44,829 nucleotides of DNA from Escherichia phage VB_EcoS-Golestan: the sequence record NC_042084.1; one strand, given 5' to 3'. A program made the position numbers and the translations under genes. Positions within the stretch are counted from its first letter, which is position 1. The number at the start of each line of letters is the position of its first letter. This document shows positions 2,756 through 42,150 of this stretch, one piece after another. The notes below the pieces were generated by a model that worked only from the letters and a program-made list of their open reading frames with translations, ran no database searches and was not told the DNA's origin.

Positions 2756-2778
2756 AGCCCCGAAAGGGGCTTTCTTAT
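2756..2778 (+). terminator. Stem-loop (AGCCCC-GAAA-GGGGCT) plus T-rich tail between portal and head morphogenesis genes; probable attenuator
   Basis: GC-rich hairpin followed by TTTCTT, read directly from sequence. Confidence 0.4.
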
Positions 2779-2781
2779 AGT

Positions 2782-3858
2782 ATGCTATTAACTTTAGTAC
2801 CACAGGGTTTAACTATGAGCTTACTTACATCCCTCATCAGCCATCAGATATGGCTGCAACGCACCGCATCCGGTGAGGTGAAAGACCTCACACCGTTCAT
2901 TCAGGAGATGCGGGATGAAATCAAACGGCAGGTGCTGTTATTCGGCGACGACGGGCGAAGCACTGCGCGGCTGAATAAACTGTTACGGGACCTTGAAGAA
3001 GCACTGACAGGGATTACAGGTGACTGGCAAACAAAGCTGACAGAAGACCTCAAGGAACTGGCGGCATATGAGGCTGAGTGGAACGTAAAGACACTGACCG
3101 CCAACGTAGCTGCGGAATTTGTTACACCTACCGCTGAACAGGTGTGGGCTGCTGCCGAGTTTCAACCGTTATCGTTGAGCGACAAGCCTGTTGACTTCAC
3201 TAAGCTGATGTCAGGTTGGGGTGAAACCGAAGTCGCGCGCCTGGTAACGGGTGTTAAGATGGGCTTTGTTCAGGGTAAGACAACACGGCAGATTGTTACA
3301 GAAGTAGTCGGTAAAGGCGGGCTGGCTGACGTATCAGAGAAATACGCCGCTACCGTAATCCGCACTGCGCTGTCTCACGTGTCCAACGAAGCCCGCAATG
3401 AAACATACCGCCAGAACGACGATATCATCGAGAAGTACGAATGGGTGTCAACGCTGGACAGCCGTACCAGTACGATTTGCAGAGCCAGGGACGGAATGAC
3501 GTGGGAAATCGGTAAAGGTCCGATGCCGCCAGCGCATCCGAATTGTCGAAGCACCACGGCTCCGGTAATCAGTTCAGAGTTCGACTTCCTCGATAAAGGC
3601 GCAAAACGGGCGGCTAAGGGCGCTGACGGCGGCACTCAGGTAAGCGCGGACACAACATATTACGAGTTCCTTAAACAACAACCGGCATGGTTCGTGGATG
3701 AAGCACTCGGGCCGACCCGCGGTAAGATTTTCCGCAACAGCGGTATATCGCCGGAAGAGTTTCGCGTAATATCTGTAGATGGTTTCGGGAATCCGCTCAC
3801 GCTTAAGCAGATGGCGGAACTCGATAAACGTGTTGCTGATTATCTGAAAGGGGGATAA
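2782..3858 (+). CDS. Head morphogenesis protein (Mu F / SPP1 gp7-like minor head protein); start may be the ATG at 2814
   Basis: 358 aa; C-terminal PPAHPNCRST resembles the HPNCRC hallmark of MuF-like proteins (from memory); position after portal. Confidence 0.7.
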   Translation: MLLTLVPQGLTMSLLTSLISHQIWLQRTASGEVKDLTPFIQEMRDEIKRQVLLFGDDGRSTARLNKLLRDLEEALTGITGDWQTKLTEDLKELAAYEAEWNVKTLTANVAAEFVTPTAEQVWAAAEFQPLSLSDKPVDFTKLMSGWGETEVARLVTGVKMGFVQGKTTRQIVTEVVGKGGLADVSEKYAATVIRTALSHVSNEARNETYRQNDDIIEKYEWVSTLDSRTSTICRARDGMTWEIGKGPMPPAHPNCRSTTAPVISSEFDFLDKGAKRAAKGADGGTQVSADTTYYEFLKQQPAWFVDEALGPTRGKIFRNSGISPEEFRVISVDGFGNPLTLKQMAELDKRVADYLKGG

Positions 3859-4322: not shown

Positions 4323-4350
4323 GAGGCCCCGAAAGGGGCTTTATTTTTAT
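4323..4350 (+). terminator. Rho-independent terminator
   Basis: AGGCCCC-GAAA-GGGGCT hairpin followed by TTATTTTTAT. Confidence 0.65.
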
Positions 4351-4857: not shown

Positions 4858-4884
4858 GACGGCCTCCTCGTTTCGATGTAATGA

Positions 4885-4913
4885 ATAGTACCCTATTATA
4901 TTGGTGTGTGCAA
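4885..4913 (-). promoter_or_regulatory. Family-1 promoter copy A (TTGCAC-N17-TACTAT) containing inverted repeat AATAG-N4-CTATT (4884-4897)
   Basis: About 35 bp near-identical to copies at 14121-14149, 37911-37939 and 39113-39141; lies just upstream of the lipoprotein cassette. Confidence 0.5.
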
Positions 4914-4979
4914 ACTATTTATTTACGTATTCCAGTTATTCCACTCAATTGTAAATGTTGGAATAAACTATTCGAATAG

Positions 4980-5008
4980 TTGACTTTTCACTAAAAATGT
5001 GCTAAGCT
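4980..5008 (+). promoter_or_regulatory. Sigma70-type promoter TTGACT-N17-TAAGCT with extended -10 TG; its -35 overlaps the perfect palindrome ACTATTCGAATAGT (4967-4980)
   Basis: Near-identical promoter at 37602-37630; both followed by the same transcribed leader. Confidence 0.6.
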
Positions 5009-11650: not shown

Positions 11651-11682
11651 AACTAAGGCCCCTTTCGGGGCCTTTTTCTTAC
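11651..11682. terminator. Bidirectional rho-independent terminator
   Basis: AAGGCCCC-TTTC-GGGGCCTT flanked by an A-run and a T-run; separates convergent major tail gene and kinase gene. Confidence 0.6.
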
Positions 11683-14078: not shown

Positions 14079-14120
14079 AACATAACTCCTGATTTGAGAT
14101 AACATCGTCGGTGTAAGTGA

Positions 14121-14149
14121 ATAGTACGCTATTATATTGGGGTGTGCAA
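14121..14149 (-). promoter_or_regulatory. Family-1 promoter copy B (TTGCAC-N17-TACTAT) with inverted repeat AATAG-N4-CTATT (14120-14133)
   Basis: Near-identical to copies A, F and H; upstream of the accessory cassette. Confidence 0.5.
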
Positions 14150-14256
14150 GTAGTGTGCTAGAATAATTTTGCGCCTAGTGTCGCACACGAAAAGCGGGTG
14201 GTTCCCGTCTGGCGCATTTCCTTTAACCAGTAACCTCTTAACCAAAGGATTAAAGA

Positions 14257-27464: not shown

Positions 27465-27752
27465 CTAACTATAATAGTTCGCTATTAGGGCGTCAACCTG
27501 TTTAAACGAACCAACGACAAAAACATTAGCACCACGCTTACGCATCCGCTCGTGCTCCCGTAACTGGTGTGGATCCGGCTTCGTGCTTTCGTCTTTCTTT
27601 ATCTCGACGAACCAGATGACGCCGCCGGGGAGAATTACCAGCAGGTCAGGGGCGCCGGAACGTCCTTCGTAGGAAAGTTTACGAACGAGGCCACCAATGG
27701 CCTCGAATCGGTCTTTTGCGTATTTCTGTATTTTGCCCTCAGGCGTACTCAT
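27465..27752 (-). CDS. VRR-NUC domain nuclease (PD-(D/E)xK); start set at ATG 27752
   Basis: PDLLVILPGG...FVEIKK motif; RBS GAGGGG before ATG 27752; ORF-track GTG start at 27788. Confidence 0.55.
   Translation of the reverse strand: MSTPEGKIQKYAKDRFEAIGGLVRKLSYEGRSGAPDLLVILPGGVIWFVEIKKDESTKPDPHQLREHERMRKRGANVFVVGSFKQVDALIANYYS
27468..27496 (-). promoter_or_regulatory. Family-2 promoter copy C (TTGACG-N17-TATAGT) with inverted repeat AATAG-N4-CTATT in the spacer (27473-27486)
   Basis: Near-identical to copies D and E; upstream of the methyltransferase/helicase operon. Confidence 0.55.
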
Positions 27753-31235: not shown

Positions 31236-31264
31236 ACTATAATAGCTAACTATTCATGTGTCAA
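31236..31264 (-). promoter_or_regulatory. Family-2 promoter copy D (TTGACA-N17-TATAGT) with inverted repeat AATAG-N4-CTATT in the spacer (31241-31254)
   Basis: Consensus -35 and near-consensus -10; near-identical to copies C and E. Confidence 0.6.
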
Positions 31265-34128: not shown

Positions 34129-34157
34129 ACTATAATAGCGAACTATTCACATGTCAA
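34129..34157 (-). promoter_or_regulatory. Family-2 promoter copy E (TTGACA-N17-TATAGT) with inverted repeat AATAG-N4-CTATT (34134-34147); a second half-site ACTATTCACAT repeats at 34186-34196
   Basis: Near-identical to copies C and D; divergent from the Cro-like gene. Confidence 0.6.
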
Positions 34158-34221
34158 TGGGCTTTTCTAAAATAATTAATATGGTACTATTCACATATCA
34201 ACTAACTAAGGAGTAGCTGAC

Positions 34222-34437
34222 ATGCAACCATCTGAACTAGGCATTCGTGTAGAACAACGCCGTAAAGAACTCGGCATCTCCCAGCGCCGTCTGGCGGTCC
34301 TGACCGGCGTTTCCCAGGGCGCAATTAACCAGCTGGCTCTCGGTGTAACTCAGGACGTCCGCCCGGCAACGTTGTTTAAACTGGCGGAAGTGCTGGAAGT
34401 AGACGCTAAGTGGCTGGCGTTCGGTGAAGGGGCTTGA
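34222..34437 (+). CDS. Cro/C1-type (XRE family) helix-turn-helix transcriptional regulator
   Basis: 71 aa; ELGISQRRLAVLTGVSQGAINQL is a classic HTH; RBS AAGGAG; terminator overlaps the stop. Confidence 0.7.
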   Translation: MQPSELGIRVEQRRKELGISQRRLAVLTGVSQGAINQLALGVTQDVRPATLFKLAEVLEVDAKWLAFGEGA

Positions 34438-36906: not shown

Positions 36907-37031
36907 TTCTTTTTCTCCGCACGTTCTAAGGCTTCCTGCATACGACGCATTGCGCGGTTCATCTTTACCGGTGCGAAGAAATCAGCGCCATGTTTCTGGC
37001 GGCGTAGCTGTGGAACTATTAACTTCGACAT
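36903..37031 (-). CDS. Small basic protein (42 aa) translationally coupled to the primase gene
   Basis: Hand-translated MSKLIVPQLRRQKHGADFF...; RBS AAGGA; ATGA overlap with primase start. Confidence 0.25.
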   Translation of the reverse strand: MSKLIVPQLRRQKHGADFFAPVKMNRAMRRMQEALERAEKKK

Positions 37032-37081
37032 TGTATAATCCTTGTGCTTACTTTGATGATTTGTGCTTTAGCCCCGACGTT

Positions 37082-37315
37082 CTAGCGTTGGGGTTTCTTT
37101 TGCCTACGTGCCGCATTAATCCACTCTCCTTCGCTCTGGTAGAAACTGCAATCAAGAATATCCTCTATAGAAAATTTAACTATTTTAGTGGGTCCACAAA
37201 AGTTATAAGGGAAAAGTTCTACATAACACCCATCGTCGGTTATATTTGACGCAATCTTGAAATAATATTTAATGCTGTCGTCTTCACGGAAGCTACAACC
37301 CATACGCCCAATCAT
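37082..37315 (-). CDS. Hypothetical protein
   Basis: 77 aa; ATGA coupling to the upstream HTH gene. Confidence 0.4.
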   Translation of the reverse strand: MIGRMGCSFREDDSIKYYFKIASNITDDGCYVELFPYNFCGPTKIVKFSIEDILDCSFYQSEGEWINAARRQKKPQR

Positions 37316-37500
37316 TTCACGTTCTCCTTAATCCACGCTTCAACTTTATTACGGTCAAATGTTCCTGGTAAACGGCGCCCCATAACTTTAATACAGCAGT
37401 CAGGGAATTTACCACTGCGTAACCAGTTATTAATTGTCTGACGTGTTACCCCGATACGTTCTGCTACTTCATTCTGGGTCATGTAATGTTGCATTTTCAT
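37312..37500 (-). CDS. AlpA/excisionase-like helix-turn-helix DNA-binding protein; start set at ATG 37500
   Basis: MTQNEVAERIGVTRQTINNWLRSGKFP HTH; RBS AGGAG before ATG 37500; first gene of the - strand replication operon. Confidence 0.55.
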   Translation of the reverse strand: MKMQHYMTQNEVAERIGVTRQTINNWLRSGKFPDCCIKVMGRRLPGTFDRNKVEAWIKENVK

Positions 37501-37601
37501 ATCTCCTGTTTGTTTGGTGAAAACGAGTATAGGATAGCGGGAATGTAAAAGCAACTAAAACACCACACAAAGTTACTAAGATACAAAAGATGCTACTGGT
37601 A

Positions 37602-37630
37602 TTGACTTTTACTAAAAAATATGGTAAGCT
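37602..37630 (+). promoter_or_regulatory. Sigma70-type promoter TTGACT-N17-TAAGCT with extended -10 TG (paralog of 4980-5008)
   Basis: Near-identical to the 4980 promoter; followed by the same leader. Confidence 0.6.
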
Positions 37631-37633
37631 CAG

Positions 37634-37690
37634 CCTGAGCTTGTGAAGTATGAACAAGCGACCGCGGCGCGCGGCAGGCGAAACGAGCAC
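37634..37690 (+). other. Conserved promoter-proximal leader element, copy 2
   Basis: 38 nt identical to 5012-5049, then similar but diverged sequence. Confidence 0.5.
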
Positions 37691-37799
37691 GTGTAGCGTG
37701 TGGAGTGAGGCTCGCTAGCGCGTTTGGGAGGCCCAAAGTCTATTGTAAATCCCACCTAAATATCTAAGTTACTGATTTGCCGTAGGTCAGAACCGCAAG

Positions 37800-37826
37800 C
37801 TCACTCACTCACTCACTCACTCACTC
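37800..37826. repeat. Tetranucleotide microsatellite (CTCA)6 followed by hairpin GGTGCC-TTCG-GCACC (37831-37846)
   Basis: Direct read: CTCACTCACTCACTCACTCACTCACTC. Confidence 0.9.
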
Positions 37827-37910
37827 TTGGTGCCTTCGGCACCACGTTCGTTTCGTTTCGCTCGCCATCCCATTAAACGAAAGAATCACAACGGCAACGT
37901 AACTATTCTC

Positions 37911-37939
37911 TTGCACACCCCAACATAATAGGATACTAT
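37911..37939 (+). promoter_or_regulatory. Family-1 promoter copy F (TTGCAC-N17-TACTAT) with inverted repeat AATAG-N4-CTATT (37927-37940)
   Basis: Near-identical to copies A, B and H; upstream of the small-gene block starting at 37975. Confidence 0.5.
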
Positions 37940-37974
37940 TCACTTATCGAAACGAGACAGAGGAGTGAGGGTTA

Positions 37975-38165
37975 TGTTTAAGAAGGGTCAGTTGGTTAAA
38001 ACTAAACGCGGAGGGCAATATGTATTAGTGTTGCAGGACGAGAGCGAGTATGACGAGGATAATCTGGTTGACGTATGGGGTCTGGTAAGAAAGAAAACTG
38101 GGTTCGCCTCACGCGATAATTTAGAACTCATCGGCAACAATTTTAAATTCAAAGGGGTGAAGTGA
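37975..38165 (+). CDS. Hypothetical small protein
   Basis: 66 aa; RBS GAGGAGTGAGGG. Confidence 0.5.
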
Positions 38166-38383
38166 TGATTAAGGTGGAGATTAAATCGAAAGAGACAAAA
38201 CAAACTGTAGCCAGTAAAGAATTCAACAGTGAATCCGAAATAGGTCCCTGGTTAAAACAGTACGTACATTTGCAGACGGTTTATATCATTCTGACGAAGG
38301 CAAGTGGCGTTACCGTTTTACTAGAACCGGCATCGAATAATGATGCTTGTGCCGACGACTCTGAGGGAGGTTGCCGTGGATAA
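38162..38383 (+). CDS. Hypothetical small protein
   Basis: 73 aa; ATGA coupling. Confidence 0.45.
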   Translation: MMIKVEIKSKETKQTVASKEFNSESEIGPWLKQYVHLQTVYIILTKASGVTVLLEPASNNDACADDSEGGCRG

Positions 38384-38425
38384 TATTTTAATTGTCAGCG
38401 CTGTTTATGCGGGGTGGAGGTTGAT

Positions 38426-38620
38426 ATGAGTCCATATAATGAATTCCGCTTACGCCGTCTTGTTGGTGGGCTGCGCGCCGCCGAGTTTGGCGTTGAATGT
38501 CGGGAAAAGGCGAAGTACACCCCATGGAAGTCGTGGAATTTGGCCCACGCTAAGGCGGTAGCGCAGTACCGGGAGTACAAGTTAAATAGTTTCCTAAAGC
38601 ACCACGGGGTAGAGCTATGA
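38426..38620 (+). CDS. Hypothetical small protein; start set at ATG 38426
   Basis: RBS GGAGGT 6 nt upstream of ATG 38426. Confidence 0.45.
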   Translation: MSPYNEFRLRRLVGGLRAAEFGVECREKAKYTPWKSWNLAHAKAVAQYREYKLNSFLKHHGVEL

Positions 38621-38760
38621 GAGAAGCATTCGAACGGTGGGCCGTCGTCGAGGGTCTGCCGGTTAACAAGGGTTCGAAGAAAGAGTACCTGAACATTAAG
38701 ACGCGTCTCGCGTGGCGGGCGTGGAAAGCTGGTGTGCAAACTGTGATGAATACGAGGTGA
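38617..38760 (+). CDS. Hypothetical small protein (47 aa)
   Basis: Hand-translated MREAFERWAVVEGLPVNKGSKKEYLNIKTRLAWRAWKAGVQTVMNTR; ATGA coupling. Confidence 0.3.
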   Translation: MREAFERWAVVEGLPVNKGSKKEYLNIKTRLAWRAWKAGVQTVMNTR

Positions 38761-38763
38761 GAT

Positions 38764-38952
38764 ATGAGCGAGTGGATTAAGTGTAGCGAGCGGATGCCGG
38801 AGCCTTATGAATACGTTCTTGTAACTGATGGTTTTGTCGGTTGTGAGGTTATGCGTGTTAATTCAGATGGCTACTGGGGACCAGCGAAGAGTTTATATCA
38901 CGGTGATATCTCCCACTGGATGCCCTTACCTGAGCCACCGGCGCCGGTGTAA
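38764..38952 (+). CDS. DUF551-like small phage protein
   Basis: 62 aa; N-terminal MSEWIKCSERMPE pattern recalled as typical of DUF551. Confidence 0.45.
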   Translation: MSEWIKCSERMPEPYEYVLVTDGFVGCEVMRVNSDGYWGPAKSLYHGDISHWMPLPEPPAPV

Positions 38953-38997
38953 CAGGGGGTATAACAGGTCAATAGGTTACTATTTTACTGAGTGACT

Positions 38998-39036
38998 TAC
39001 GCTGCTACACAGCAGCGTATCATTTTTCTCATTTTT
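38998..39036 (+). terminator. Rho-independent terminator
   Basis: TACGCTGCT-ACAC-AGCAGCGTA hairpin followed by TCATTTTTCTCATTTTTG. Confidence 0.55.
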
Positions 39037-39112
39037 GTTCTATTTCACCAAACGCAACAATCGAAGCGACTATTGCAGGAGATGCAACAATACAGGCACC
39101 AATAAAATTTAC

Positions 39113-39141
39113 TTGCACACTAAGATAGAATAGGCTACTAT
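39113..39141 (+). promoter_or_regulatory. Family-1 promoter copy H (TTGCAC-N17-TACTAT) with inverted repeat AATAG-N4-CTATT (39129-39142)
   Basis: Near-identical to copies A, B and F. Confidence 0.5.
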
Positions 39142-39157
39142 TCATTTACACCAACGA

Positions 39158-39340
39158 GTGGAGAGATGGAAGATGACGTTTAAAGAAGCGGTATCATACG
39201 GGTACTTAAGACGTAGAGGAAATTATAAAGGTGCTCCGTGGGTGTGCAATGGGCGCCAGTTCGATACCTGGAAAGAGGCACTGGCGGAAGCCAATGAAAT
39301 GTTAAAAAGAGACTGGGAGCAACAGAAAAATGGACAGTAA
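39158..39340 (+). CDS. Hypothetical small protein
   Basis: 60 aa; RBS GAGTGGAGAG. Confidence 0.45.
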   Translation: MERWKMTFKEAVSYGYLRRRGNYKGAPWVCNGRQFDTWKEALAEANEMLKRDWEQQKNGQ

Positions 39341-39782
39341 AAACGAAGTATTCGAGTACCTGATTGACCAACTACGTCAGCAGGTAAATAACAACCAGTG
39401 CGAAGACCTGGCGCAAGAGGTGCAGTCGCTTAAGAATCGGTTACGTGACGCGTCGGCGCAGATTAAGGAGTTGCATAAAGAGCTTGAGTATATTGGGGGC
39501 GAGTACAGACGAGCACTTGATTACGATCTTAGCGATGCACCTAAGCAATCTGGTTGCCGTAAGGGATACACCCAGAAATCATGCTGGATTGAGTGGTCAG
39601 GAGGAGCTTGCCCTGTGCCACGCGGAACACTTGTCGATGTTATTTACCGCGACGGGGAAACCTTATGTGGCTTGCCTGCTGATGAGCTTAACGACACGGA
39701 AAGAGATGCTAGCGTCTGCTTTTGGCGACACAATGGTATGTCTAATGACATAGTTCGTTACCGTAAGGCCGTGCGCCAATGA
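39330..39782 (+). CDS. Hypothetical protein with N-terminal coiled coil and Cys-rich C-terminal half
   Basis: 150 aa. Confidence 0.45.
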   Translation: MDSKNEVFEYLIDQLRQQVNNNQCEDLAQEVQSLKNRLRDASAQIKELHKELEYIGGEYRRALDYDLSDAPKQSGCRKGYTQKSCWIEWSGGACPVPRGTLVDVIYRDGETLCGLPADELNDTERDASVCFWRHNGMSNDIVRYRKAVRQ

Positions 39783-39982
39783 CCAGCATCTTATTTATCT
39801 GGGTATTGTCCGCAGGCCAGATGCAACTAGCGGCATCAGAAACGTTCTACTCGATGGAGGCGTGCCAGTCAGCGGCACGCGCCGCAGAGAACGCGCACTT
39901 CCTGTTTCAGGGCGACAAGCCCAACGATTCAGAGGTACGCGCTATCTGCTCACCTAAGCGACTTGGTAAACAGGGGAAATAA
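39779..39982 (+). CDS. Small secreted/membrane protein (signal-peptide-like N-terminus)
   Basis: 67 aa; hydrophobic N-terminus MTSILFIWVLSAGQMQLAAS; ATGA coupling. Confidence 0.4.
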   Translation: MTSILFIWVLSAGQMQLAASETFYSMEACQSAARAAENAHFLFQGDKPNDSEVRAICSPKRLGKQGK

Positions 39983-40166
39983 CATGGTACAGAGATATGG
40001 CTACAACCCGATGTTCGGGTTTACTCCTGATGTTGAAGGCGGGTTAGTGCTTTACGAAGATTACGCGAAACTCGAAGCCGAGTTACAGAAATACAAGGAC
40101 CAGTTCCTCGATTACGTCGAGTGCGCGAACTGTGGGTCAATTACACATGTGGAAGGGGTGGAGTGA
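39963..40166 (+). CDS. Hypothetical small protein
   Basis: 67 aa; RBS AGGGGAAATAAC. Confidence 0.4.
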   Translation: MVNRGNNMVQRYGYNPMFGFTPDVEGGLVLYEDYAKLEAELQKYKDQFLDYVECANCGSITHVEGVE

Positions 40167-40168
40167 AG

Positions 40169-40414
40169 ATGACGAGTAGAGAACGGTTTGAAAAGTGGTT
40201 TAATAGAAGAAGCAACTGGAAAATAACTCCATCAATGAGAAAGAAGGATGGATATATTGGCAACCCATCTGCGCAAAGCAAATGGGAAGTGTGGAAGGCG
40301 TCACGCGAAGAAATTGAGATTCAAGCGTGTCCGTGCCCAAACGACCATGGCCCGTATGTTGATGACCATTATCGCGAGCAAATTAATAACGCAGGCCTAA
40401 AGTTGAAAAAATGA
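40169..40414 (+). CDS. Hypothetical protein; start set at ATG 40169
   Basis: RBS GGAGTGAAG; ORF-track start 40121 overlaps the previous gene. Confidence 0.4.
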   Translation: MTSRERFEKWFNRRSNWKITPSMRKKDGYIGNPSAQSKWEVWKASREEIEIQACPCPNDHGPYVDDHYREQINNAGLKLKK

Positions 40415-40496
40415 TTATCCAACTGAACGACATCATGAAAGCCGATATCATTCAGCTTGAAGATTACGGCATACAACTCGCGGAGATTCTCGGTAT

Positions 40497-40790
40497 ATGA
40501 GCCTCGCAACTGACATCCTGAAACGAAGCGGCCTTGCGCCGCTGTCACCGAGAGCGAAGACGAGTATATACAAGCGCCGAGGTAACGCGCTGTACCCAGA
40601 GATTCAGGCCAGACGTAAAGCTATCCGCGCCTGTGGATTCCAGAACGGGAAGGCTGTGAATCTCGGTGAGTTTAAAACGCAGGAGCGCGCAGCTATTGCT
40701 AATCGGTTATTTAATTACTGGAAATCGCTGGGATACGATGATATTCCGACTAAACCGCAGAGACGACAATACATCTGGCGTCATAAATAA
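40497..40790 (+). CDS. Hypothetical protein, possible AP2-like DNA-binding fold
   Basis: 97 aa; basic; GKAVNLGEFKTQERAAIA loosely resembles AP2-type domains. Confidence 0.35.
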   Translation: MSLATDILKRSGLAPLSPRAKTSIYKRRGNALYPEIQARRKAIRACGFQNGKAVNLGEFKTQERAAIANRLFNYWKSLGYDDIPTKPQRRQYIWRHK

Positions 40791-40865
40791 ACCGTTATTA
40801 GGATAATTCCTACCCGTGGTATCCTCCAGTTACTGCATACTTAATACGCACCTGGAGGATTCATC

Positions 40866-41174
40866 TTGGATAAATTTACTGAAACAGTGACAGGCTGGCT
40901 TCTCGCTGCCGCACTGGTCGGTGGATTGGTCGGACTAAGACAACATAAAAAGTCTATATCCGGGCCGATTGACGGACTGGTATTTCTTCTCACCGGCTTC
41001 GCGTGTGCCATTTTCGGTGCACCTCTTGCTGCTCAATGGTTCGGTATTACCGGTGAGCGCGAGATAGCTGGCCTCGGATTCATCATTGCCATTCTCTGGA
41101 TGCCTATCTATTCCCGCCTTTCTGGCATCGTATCGGGCGGCGATATTGCCCGCCCAGGAGGACCGCATGACTGA
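40866..41174 (+). CDS. Holin (three predicted TM segments), TTG start
   Basis: 102 aa; RBS GGAGGA 7 nt upstream; hydrophobic segments; upstream of endolysin. Confidence 0.6.
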   Translation: MDKFTETVTGWLLAAALVGGLVGLRQHKKSISGPIDGLVFLLTGFACAIFGAPLAAQWFGITGEREIAGLGFIIAILWMPIYSRLSGIVSGGDIARPGGPHD

Positions 41175-42100: not shown

Positions 42101-42121
42101 TCTATTTTCGGTAATGACTAG

Positions 42122-42150
42122 TTGACTATTACCCTCGACCCTATTATATT
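42122..42150 (+). promoter_or_regulatory. Promoter TTGACT-N17-TATATT
   Basis: Good -35/-10 with 17-bp spacer about 35 nt upstream of the ORF at 42184; shares CCCTATTATATT with family-1 region A. Confidence 0.5.

Follow-up and report, generated by a model that had tools for sequence, protein, structure and literature searches.

The genome of Escherichia phage VB_EcoS-Golestan (NC_042084.1; the window, that is, the whole stretch of DNA analyzed here, comprises 44,829 nucleotides) contains four near-identical promoters, denoted type A, which are best explained as promoters for the host sigma-70 RNA polymerase that incorporate a palindromic operator bound by a phage-encoded helix-turn-helix (HTH) repressor, most probably a Cro-like protein. 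We hold this explanation with moderate confidence; the sites with their statistics, their geometry relative to hexamers and genes and their conservation in relatives, together with the homology of the protein and the variable cargo, are what was observed, whereas promoter activity, protein binding, the identity of the binder, repression and its timing are what we infer. The phage belongs to the genus Kagunavirus of the subfamily Guernseyvirinae and, over the 4-kb stretch that was compared (positions 37000-41000), is 100% identical to Escherichia phage vB_EcoS_SCS44 (ON001686.1). The genome layout is of the siphovirus type, with a plus-strand block of packaging, head and tail genes, a minus-strand replication block and runs of small plus-strand genes, and 6.4% of the genome is non-coding. 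By annotation, the phage is strictly lytic: neither an integrase nor a CI repressor, an RNA polymerase or a sigma factor is annotated in the genome, and a search of 30 proteins (the large and the unassigned ones) against Pfam and PHROGs detected no RNA polymerase or sigma domain.

The type A copies are located at 4885-4913 (-), 14121-14149 (-), 37911-37939 (+) and 39113-39141 (+), with both coordinates and strands as given in the initial annotation. All four consist of TTGCAC, a 17-nt spacer and TACTAT, and the pairwise identity is 28-33 positions over the 36 nt compared. With up to 3 mismatches allowed, the 36-mer consensus retrieves 2 sites (0.00 in 100 shuffles) and the 19-nt core retrieves 9 sites in the genome (0.10 expected). 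In the alignment with flanks, the similarity sets in abruptly at TTGCAC, the upstream flanks of the copies being unrelated, and stops at about +12, within the leader. The copies are near-identical, as originally described, whereas the repeated unit is longer than the reported length of about 35 bp: it comprises approximately 46 bp and extends through the predicted start into the leader (..ACGAG). Two local deviations are apparent, namely ACTAAGATAG in place of ACCCCAAYAT in the upstream half of the spacer of copy 4, and TCATTAC, compared with TCAYTTA, at the 3' end of copy 1. The hexamers are indeed weak, TTGCAC matching the consensus at 3 of 6 positions and TACTAT at 4 of 6, and both remain below the threshold of a generic sigma-70 scan. 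The promoter assignment nevertheless withstands scrutiny given the 17-bp spacing, the correct strand and, in all four copies, a GGAG-type Shine-Dalgarno sequence followed by a start codon 21-36 nt past the predicted start; the four repeats are thus host-type sigma-70 promoters as predicted from sequence.

Each of these promoters precedes one of the gene groups assigned to it in the initial annotation, namely a lipoprotein cassette, an Imm/phosphoesterase/kinase cassette and two plus-strand runs of small genes. Copy 1 (4878..4913, minus strand; -35 TTGCAC at 4913-4908, palindrome AATAGGGTACTATT at 4897-4884, -10 TACTAT at 4890-4885, predicted start at about 4878-4879) is followed by the genes for a 33-aa hydrophobic peptide (4857-4756) and a lipoprotein of 114 aa (4759-4415; lipobox LSGC), both on the minus strand. 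Copy 2 (14114..14149, minus strand; -35 at 14149-14144, palindrome at 14133-14120, -10 at 14126-14121) heads the minus-strand genes for Imm, a metallophosphoesterase, a polynucleotide kinase and a dNMP-kinase-like protein (14078-11679). On the plus strand, copy 3 (37911..37946; -35 at 37911-37916, palindrome at 37927-37940, -10 at 37934-37939) precedes small genes at 37974-38952, and copy 4 (39113..39148; -35 at 39113-39118, palindrome at 39129-39142, -10 at 39136-39141) precedes small genes at 39173-40790, the first of which is highly variable among relatives. Terminators of the cassettes are found at 4323-4342, 11655-11674 and 38998-39019, those at the ends of the minus-strand cassettes being bidirectional. 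An Rfam scan at gathering thresholds yielded no family at any copy, the sole match being an unrelated int-alpA RNA nearby.

Inside the conserved core of the type A copies lies a perfect 14-bp inverted repeat, AATAG-N4-CTATT (extended core, ATAATAG-N3-ACTATTCA), which begins 10 nt past the -35 hexamer and the right arm of which coincides with the -10 hexamer (AATAGnnTACTATT); deduced from the positions of the hexamers, the palindrome spans about -19 to -6. No other inverted repeat with 5-bp arms in the genome comes close to its over-representation: it has 8 perfect copies, where 0.04 would be expected, and, with up to one mismatch allowed, 13 sites (the 8 perfect ones and 5 with a single mismatch), compared with 1.13 in shuffles. 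The next most over-represented repeats are GC-rich, of the GCCCC/GGGGC kind, and occur in terminator hairpins. The half-site AATAG/CTATT is likewise the top enriched 5-mer of non-coding DNA, occurring 28 times in 2.7 kb compared with 47 times in 41.8 kb of coding sequence (z = 10.9). Ten of the 13 palindrome sites are wholly non-coding (P = 3e-10 given the non-coding share of the genome), and the sites are almost always at promoters.

Beyond the four type A copies, the extended core is found at 34134, 31241, 27473 and 34178 and, in a weaker form, at 38971, 42117, 4975 and 2776. The first three of these sites occupy the spacers of predicted minus-strand promoters, denoted type B, that are near-consensus (10-11 of 12 positions). 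The type B promoter at 34129..34157 (TTGACA-17-TATAGT, 11/12 to consensus; palindrome AATAGTTCGCTATT at 34134-34147) would drive 34100-33873 and the leftward replication genes; the one at 31236..31264 (TTGACA-17-TATAGT; palindrome at 31241-31254) would drive a DUF2815 gene, the DNA polymerase and then further genes; and the one at 27468..27496 (TTGACG-17-TATAGT; palindrome at 27473-27486), which is located within the 3' end of the VRR-NUC gene, would drive 27434 leftwards. In type B, the palindrome begins 4 nt past the -35 hexamer and, again judging from the hexamers, spans about -25 to -12, so that the 20-bp core is inverted relative to transcription in comparison with type A and its register is shifted by 6 bp. 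Phage Jersey displays a third register, TTGCAT-N7-palindrome with the -10 hexamer TATTAT.

The remaining sites are more heterogeneous. At 34178..34191 (+), a one-mismatch palindrome, AATATGGTACTATT, overlies the TACTAT -10 hexamer of the promoter of the Cro-like gene and is a putative autoregulatory operator, 44 bp apart from the site at 34134. The perfect palindrome AATAGGTTACTATT at 38971..38984, with no assigned strand and no recognizable -35, lies just upstream of the terminator at 38998-39019 and 158 bp from the palindrome of copy 4; it is conserved in Kagunavirus loci and may represent an orphan or auxiliary operator. The predicted promoter at 42117..42150 (+), TTGACT-17-TATATT, which would drive the genes from 42184 onwards, carries a one-mismatch palindrome, ACTAGTTGACTATT, over the -35 along with extra CTATT half-sites. 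Divergent from copy 1, a predicted promoter at 4968..5008 (+), TTGACT-17-(TGc)TAAGCT, the homologue of which is labeled 'host promoter' in the fBC-Eco01 annotation, has the half-sites CTATTCGAATAG and AATAGTTGACTTTT over its -35. Finally, a degenerate site, TATAGTATGCTATT, at 2776..2789 (+), after the terminator at 2756-2771 and upstream of the gene at 2815, is a weak member of the family. Bidirectional promoters were considered and rejected: the opposite strand of type A contains -10-like sequences, TATTAT/TATATT, without a -35 or a TG extension in register, and two type B sites as well as copy 4 are outside divergent regions.

The conservation of these elements was examined in 75 loci of relatives from IMG/VR that were anchored on the neighboring HTH gene. 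Among AT-rich inverted repeats, AATAG-N4-CTATT ranks first in 32 of the 34 Kagunavirus and in 8 of the 11 Jerseyvirus loci. In the alignment of the region upstream of the HTH gene, which was chosen by position and not by motif, the arms of the palindrome are invariant across loci, the central 4 bp are variable (CGAA, CTAA, TGAA, CAAA, CGAG and CTAG), and the adjacent spacer is variable as well, with a 1-bp indel. A Hamming-distance search for type A units in the related loci (up to 12 mismatches in 36 positions, a threshold at which shuffled loci gave 0 matches) retrieved distinct versions of the unit, 50 from Kagunavirus and 17 from Jerseyvirus. The information content is maximal in the -35 hexamer, both arms, the TA of the -10 hexamer and the CAYTTA at the start site, and not in the upstream spacer and flanks; the loci extend over the copy-3 and copy-4 types and do not reach copies 1 and 2, so that part of this conservation reflects recent common ancestry. 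The type A spacers measure 17 bp, with a length of 18 bp in some of the relatives. Across the related loci, copies 3 and 4 are kept, copy 2 is present in 115 records, and copy 1 is found in fBC-Eco01 and others; the copies are thus retained in position in related phages, the lack of positional conservation being the outcome that, according to the initial annotation, would speak against it. The TS6-like phages possess a different promoter-embedded motif, TATTAS-N4-STAATA, which is only partly palindromic.

Given that the core keeps its sequence while its orientation and register relative to the -35 and -10 hexamers change, it behaves as an operator and cannot be an element that RNA polymerase recognizes. 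The proposal that the conservation exceeds the needs of sigma-70 holds in this light, the excess being best explained by a dedicated DNA-binding regulator; we consider it likely that some dedicated protein binds the palindrome. Among the modes of recognition envisaged originally, namely an activator, a repressor or a sigma-factor-like protein, the location of the palindrome over the -10 hexamer or the spacer points to repression and not activation, and no gene for a sigma-like factor is apparent in the annotation or in the Pfam and PHROGs scans. The notion of a separate regulon of accessory and small genes, on the other hand, has to be abandoned: the core is common to the promoters of the replication genes, in the reversed orientation, and of the Cro-like gene, so the putative regulon is wider.

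The leading candidate for the repressor is the 71-aa XRE-family HTH protein encoded at 34222..34437 (+), which matches the HTH_3/XRE profile. The closest protein of solved structure is Cro of phage 434 (71 aa), which aligns end-to-end (E = 2e-6), further PDB matches being the 434 repressor and P22 C2. The gene stands alone on the plus strand, divergent from a type B promoter, and the sites at 34134 and 34178 are both located in the shared control region, a putative instance of the classical autoregulatory layout. Homologues are encoded in roughly 550 records. In Klebsiella phage RothC, the gene between cI and cII, in the position of cro, encodes a homologue with 44% identity, and the control region (PR) there contains ACAA-N6-TTGT 14-mers, ACAAACAAGTTTGT and ACAAATAACCTTGT. 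Cro and the repressor of phage 434 bind 14-bp inverted repeats (ACAA-N6-TTGT) overlapping PR and PL. Two distant homologues from metagenomic contigs adjoin repeated 5-N4-5 palindromes of their own, TAAAG-N4-CTTTA at -99 and -53 in one case and TGTAG-N4-CTACA in the other. That the binder is specifically the Cro-like protein appears to be close to an even chance.

The resemblance to the Cro-operator system of phage 434 (and of P22 and lambda) is multifaceted: the protein has the XRE fold and the same length, with 434 Cro as its closest solved relative; the sites are 14-bp inverted repeats in which the outer arms are conserved and the central 4 bp vary; they overlie the spacer or the -10 hexamer of sigma-70 promoters; two of them lie in the divergent control region beside the regulator's own gene; and the RothC homologue is in the true cro position next to ACAA-N6-TTGT operators. 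In contrast to that system, here there is no CI partner, no integrase and no OR1-3/OL1-3 triplets; the sites are dispersed genome-wide over 8-13 promoters, in two orientations and at least three registers; and the half-site is AATAG instead of ACAA, in operators that are putative.

Under the favored explanation, the host sigma-70 RNA polymerase would read TTGCAC-17-TACTAT, each promoter continuing into a short, conserved segment of leader and ribosome-binding region and heading an accessory or small-gene cassette. The extra conservation would stem mainly from the 14-bp operator with its right arm in the role of the -10 hexamer, and at least four further promoters in the genome would contain this operator, with its register changed and its orientation reversed. 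A dimeric phage HTH protein, most probably the 434-Cro-like product of 34222-34437, would bind these operators and, when positioned over the -10 hexamer or the spacer, would occlude RNA polymerase; as the protein accumulates, early, replication and accessory transcription would be turned down together with its own synthesis. A second, compatible cause of the near-identity would be that the promoter-operator-leader unit serves as a joint for the exchange of accessory genes between phages.

Early or host-takeover timing of the type A promoters, as suggested in the initial annotation, is plausible. The only transcriptome from the genus Kagunavirus, that of K1B4, is a gene-level RNA-seq time course that is too coarse for timing; it classifies 4 genes as early, places the Imm gene among the 'late' ones and defines no clean early class (PMC12645636). 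More tentatively, and with somewhat less than even odds in its favor, the scheme could be extended to the Guernseyvirinae in general, such that one orphan 434-Cro-like protein without a CI partner would time early, replication and accessory transcription via a 14-bp palindrome in at least 8 promoters, the same unit doubling as a recombination joint.

Among the alternatives, the one that fares best retains a dedicated regulator and assigns the binding to another protein, the 62-aa HTH_17 (excisionase/MerR-like) product of 37312..37500 (-), which would act on the motif-bearing promoters as a repressor, with activation as a possibility at the weak ones of type A. We regard this as unlikely, with several observations on either side. 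The gene heads the early leftward operon, and no palindrome is present in the promoter of the gene itself, TTGCTT-17-TATACT (about 37521-37549); this is as expected for the top of a cascade, and it also means that the gene has no autoregulatory site, which counts against the protein as the binder. The isolated half-sites, which are scattered in several arrangements, would also fit a small monomeric winged-helix protein. On the other side, the usual targets of small HTH_17 proteins of the excisionase type are direct repeats, bound by monomers, and not 14-bp inverted repeats. Activation of the MerR type requires spacers of 19-20 bp; the spacers here have 17 bp, and those of some relatives 18 bp, which argues against this mode of action.

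Co-variation across the three lineages, Kagunavirus, Jerseyvirus and the TS6-like phages, yields conflicting hints for the two HTH proteins. Between Kagunavirus and Jerseyvirus, the XRE proteins are about 50% identical, with the recognition helix SQGAINQ in the former and SQSLITH in the latter, even though the two genera share one palindrome core; the HTH_17 protein, whose counterpart in phage Jersey is 80% identical, accordingly tracks the conserved operator better. The HTH_17 gene was not detected in phage TS6, in which the motif is different, and this too would favor the HTH_17 protein; yet the TS6-like phages have promoter-embedded dyads without an HTH_17 gene and retain a diverged XRE protein, which is the only one of the two HTH proteins recognizable in the early region. 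The HTH_17 protein is present in 441 phage records, the names of which are those of Guernseyvirinae-type Salmonella and Escherichia phages, and the four 'early' genes of the K1B4 transcriptome (PMC12645636) include an HTH gene, which we equate with the HTH_17 gene on the basis of gene order.

Under a further alternative, there is no dedicated regulator at all: the repeats would be a mobile promoter-leader cassette, similar to morons or PeSL elements, spread by recent duplication or recombination, and the palindrome would be a by-product of an AT-rich, -10-like sequence. Much of the data is in line with such mobility. The edges of similarity, at the -35 hexamer and at about +12, are sharp, with unrelated flanks upstream, and terminators bound the cassettes. 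For most relatives, homology in the copy-1 region is lost at about 4863, past the promoter and ahead of the cargo; the copy-4-type promoter and leader are followed by no fewer than 10 unrelated first genes among the 34 Kagunavirus loci; and the copy-3-type promoter has two alternative continuations that diverge right after ..ACGAGACA. A repeated promoter unit, variable cargo directly after it and terminators at the boundaries, the features by which a mobile cassette is recognized, are all present. A precedent exists in the PeSL cassettes of T4-type phages, which, like lambdoid morons, combine near-identical early promoter units with flanking hypervariable small genes (PMC2839356, PMC4122927), with cargo that changes directly behind the promoter and leader and terminators at the ends of the cassettes. 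Unlike the PeSL units, the promoters here lack a fused conserved stem-loop and, unlike in either system, the unit holds an operator-like palindrome that is common to the promoters of core genes; recombination is deduced here from the homology breaks.

As a replacement for the operator, we consider this alternative rather improbable, since it leaves unexplained the presence of the same 14-20-bp core, inverted and in another register, in the unrelated consensus promoters of replication genes, the invariance of the arms next to a variable center and flanks in two genera, and the 200-fold excess of one palindrome. As an added role, it is compatible with the operator. Conversely, the operator does not account for the conservation of type A outside the palindrome, where TTGCAC is invariant and the spacer sequence CC(C)AAYAT and the CAYTTA at the start site are also conserved; cassette exchange is a second, compatible reason why approximately 46 bp, and not just the hexamers and the dyad, stay near-identical.

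That a host protein binds the palindrome, or that the palindrome acts as an extruded DNA hairpin as in N4-like promoters, is very improbable. The sites are AT-rich and located at promoters, and a stem of 5-6 bp can be drawn; the stems are weak, however, at -2.5 to -3.7 kcal/mol (z from -0.5 to -2.5), three of the four are no better than shuffles, and no virion RNA polymerase is encoded according to the annotation and the Pfam and PHROGs scans. No convincing match to CRP, IHF or Fis was found when the sites were inspected by eye against the consensus sequences of these proteins. Moreover, the motif differs between the Jersey and TS6 lineages, both of which are Salmonella phages, and such a difference among sister lineages on the same hosts favors a phage-specific factor over a host factor. 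Recognition by an RNA polymerase or sigma factor of the phage itself, a reading stated for fBC-Eco01 and implied by the PHIRE annotation, is scarcely credible: although a 20-mer that occurs about 7 times per genome is the pattern PHIRE was built to find, and although the ACTAT core bears a faint resemblance to T7 and SP6 promoters, neither the annotation nor the Pfam and PHROGs scans of the large and unassigned proteins reveal a gene for such a polymerase or sigma factor, the sites are embedded in sigma-70-like -35/-10 frames with 17-18-bp spacing, and the core is inverted relative to the downstream genes at 34134, 31241 and 27473, an occurrence in both orientations that makes a directional polymerase promoter impossible.

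The motif has already been published as a predicted promoter, and host-type promoters into which a repressor operator is built are well known; the palindrome-bearing promoters reveal no new kind of mechanism. According to Table S4 of the description of VB_EcoS-Golestan, PHIRE predicts seven 'conserved promoter sequences', located at 2775-2794, 4898-4879, 14134-14115, 34133-34152, 34177-34196, 37926-37945 and 39128-39147, which cover all four type A copies with identical sequence and include the degenerate site at 2776 as PHIRE no. 1 (PMC7203180). In phage fBC-Eco01, seven sites with the consensus tgAATAGTa-ccTATTat-T were assigned to a 'phage-encoded RNA polymerase' (PMC9825357); this consensus is the reverse complement of the present motif. 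The palindrome, its two orientations and architectures, and the candidate regulator are absent from the Golestan, fBC-Eco01 and Jersey sources, and a literature search for experimental studies of promoters or start sites in the Guernseyvirinae (Jerseyvirinae) retrieved none. Should the operator reading prove true, it would provide a simple model of temporal control in the Guernseyvirinae, a large group of phages of Salmonella and E. coli that are widely proposed for therapy and food safety; it would amend published annotations, namely the 'phage RNA polymerase promoters' and the incorrect strand of the site at 34133; it would identify the promoter-leader cassette as an insertion point for accessory genes, such as those for superinfection-exclusion proteins; and it would offer a ready-made regulated promoter for engineering Guernseyvirinae phages. 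The existing annotations of individual sites vary: the site at 34133 is described as 'forward, before ORF48' (PMC7203180), whereas the promoter predicted there in the present analysis is on the reverse strand; the copy-1 homologue is annotated as 'phage promoter2' in the GenBank record of fBC-Eco01; and the homologous sites in the Jersey record are annotated as sigma-70-like promoters.

The HTH_17 gene, which encodes a 62-aa protein, an alternative candidate binder of the AATAG palindrome (AATAG-N4-CTATT, the putative operator), belongs to the helicase-primase operon and is separated from copy 3 of the type A promoter (TTGCAC-17-TACTAT) by a divergent region of 474 bp. The candidate promoter of this operon, TTGCTT-17-TATACT (37521-37549, minus strand), lacks the palindrome, and accordingly the HTH_17/helicase-primase operon may lie outside the palindrome regulon; could it be an immediate-early operon? 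The same 474-bp region contains, at about 37800-37832, a four-base repeat that reads (ACTC)n on the plus strand and (GAGT)n on the minus strand, close to which a CGAAACGAAACGAACG repeat is found.

In TS6-like Guernseyvirinae, the helicase operon is headed by the XRE gene of these phages, and a search of these genomes for the HTH_17 gene did not detect it. The promoter-embedded dyad of this group is different, TATTAS-N4-STAATA, with TAATAT as the -10 element, and is found in Salmonella phage TS6 (L005) at positions 54, 872, 22955 and 29675.

Upstream of copy 4, a perfect palindrome not associated with a promoter is located at 38971-38984, with additional half-sites (single AATAG/CTATT arms) at 39040 and 39070; in relatives, it is preceded by two copies of the direct repeat GGTGTAACAGG. 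A distance of 158 bp, or roughly 15 helical turns, separates the centre of this palindrome from the copy-4 palindrome, and this spacing could permit auxiliary-operator looping.

Both minus-strand accessory cassettes end, inside the structural gene block, at bidirectional GC-rich terminators GGCCCC..GGGGCC (4323-4342 and 11655-11674) and thus show the moron-like order of promoter, cargo and terminator. Adjoining copy 2, within the divergent intergenic region, is a full-length match to the int-alpA RNA model (Rfam RF02996; 14168-14232, plus strand), an unusual setting for this motif, in a lytic phage. The match scores 36.6 bits, where the gathering threshold is 35.8, and its E value is 4.7e-4 for the whole genome and 2.7e-6 when taken locally. 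An extended -10 candidate, TGTGCTAGAAT (about 14157-14167, plus strand), lies directly 5' of the match, and the tail assembly chaperone gene lies downstream.

Comparison of the window with the phage collection yielded no separate near-identical match for the Golestan genome. The records of vB_EcoS_SCS44 (Kazakhstan) and VB_EcoS-Golestan (Iran, published in 2020; PMC7203180) are both 44,829 bp long, with 78 features and identical gene coordinates in the two.
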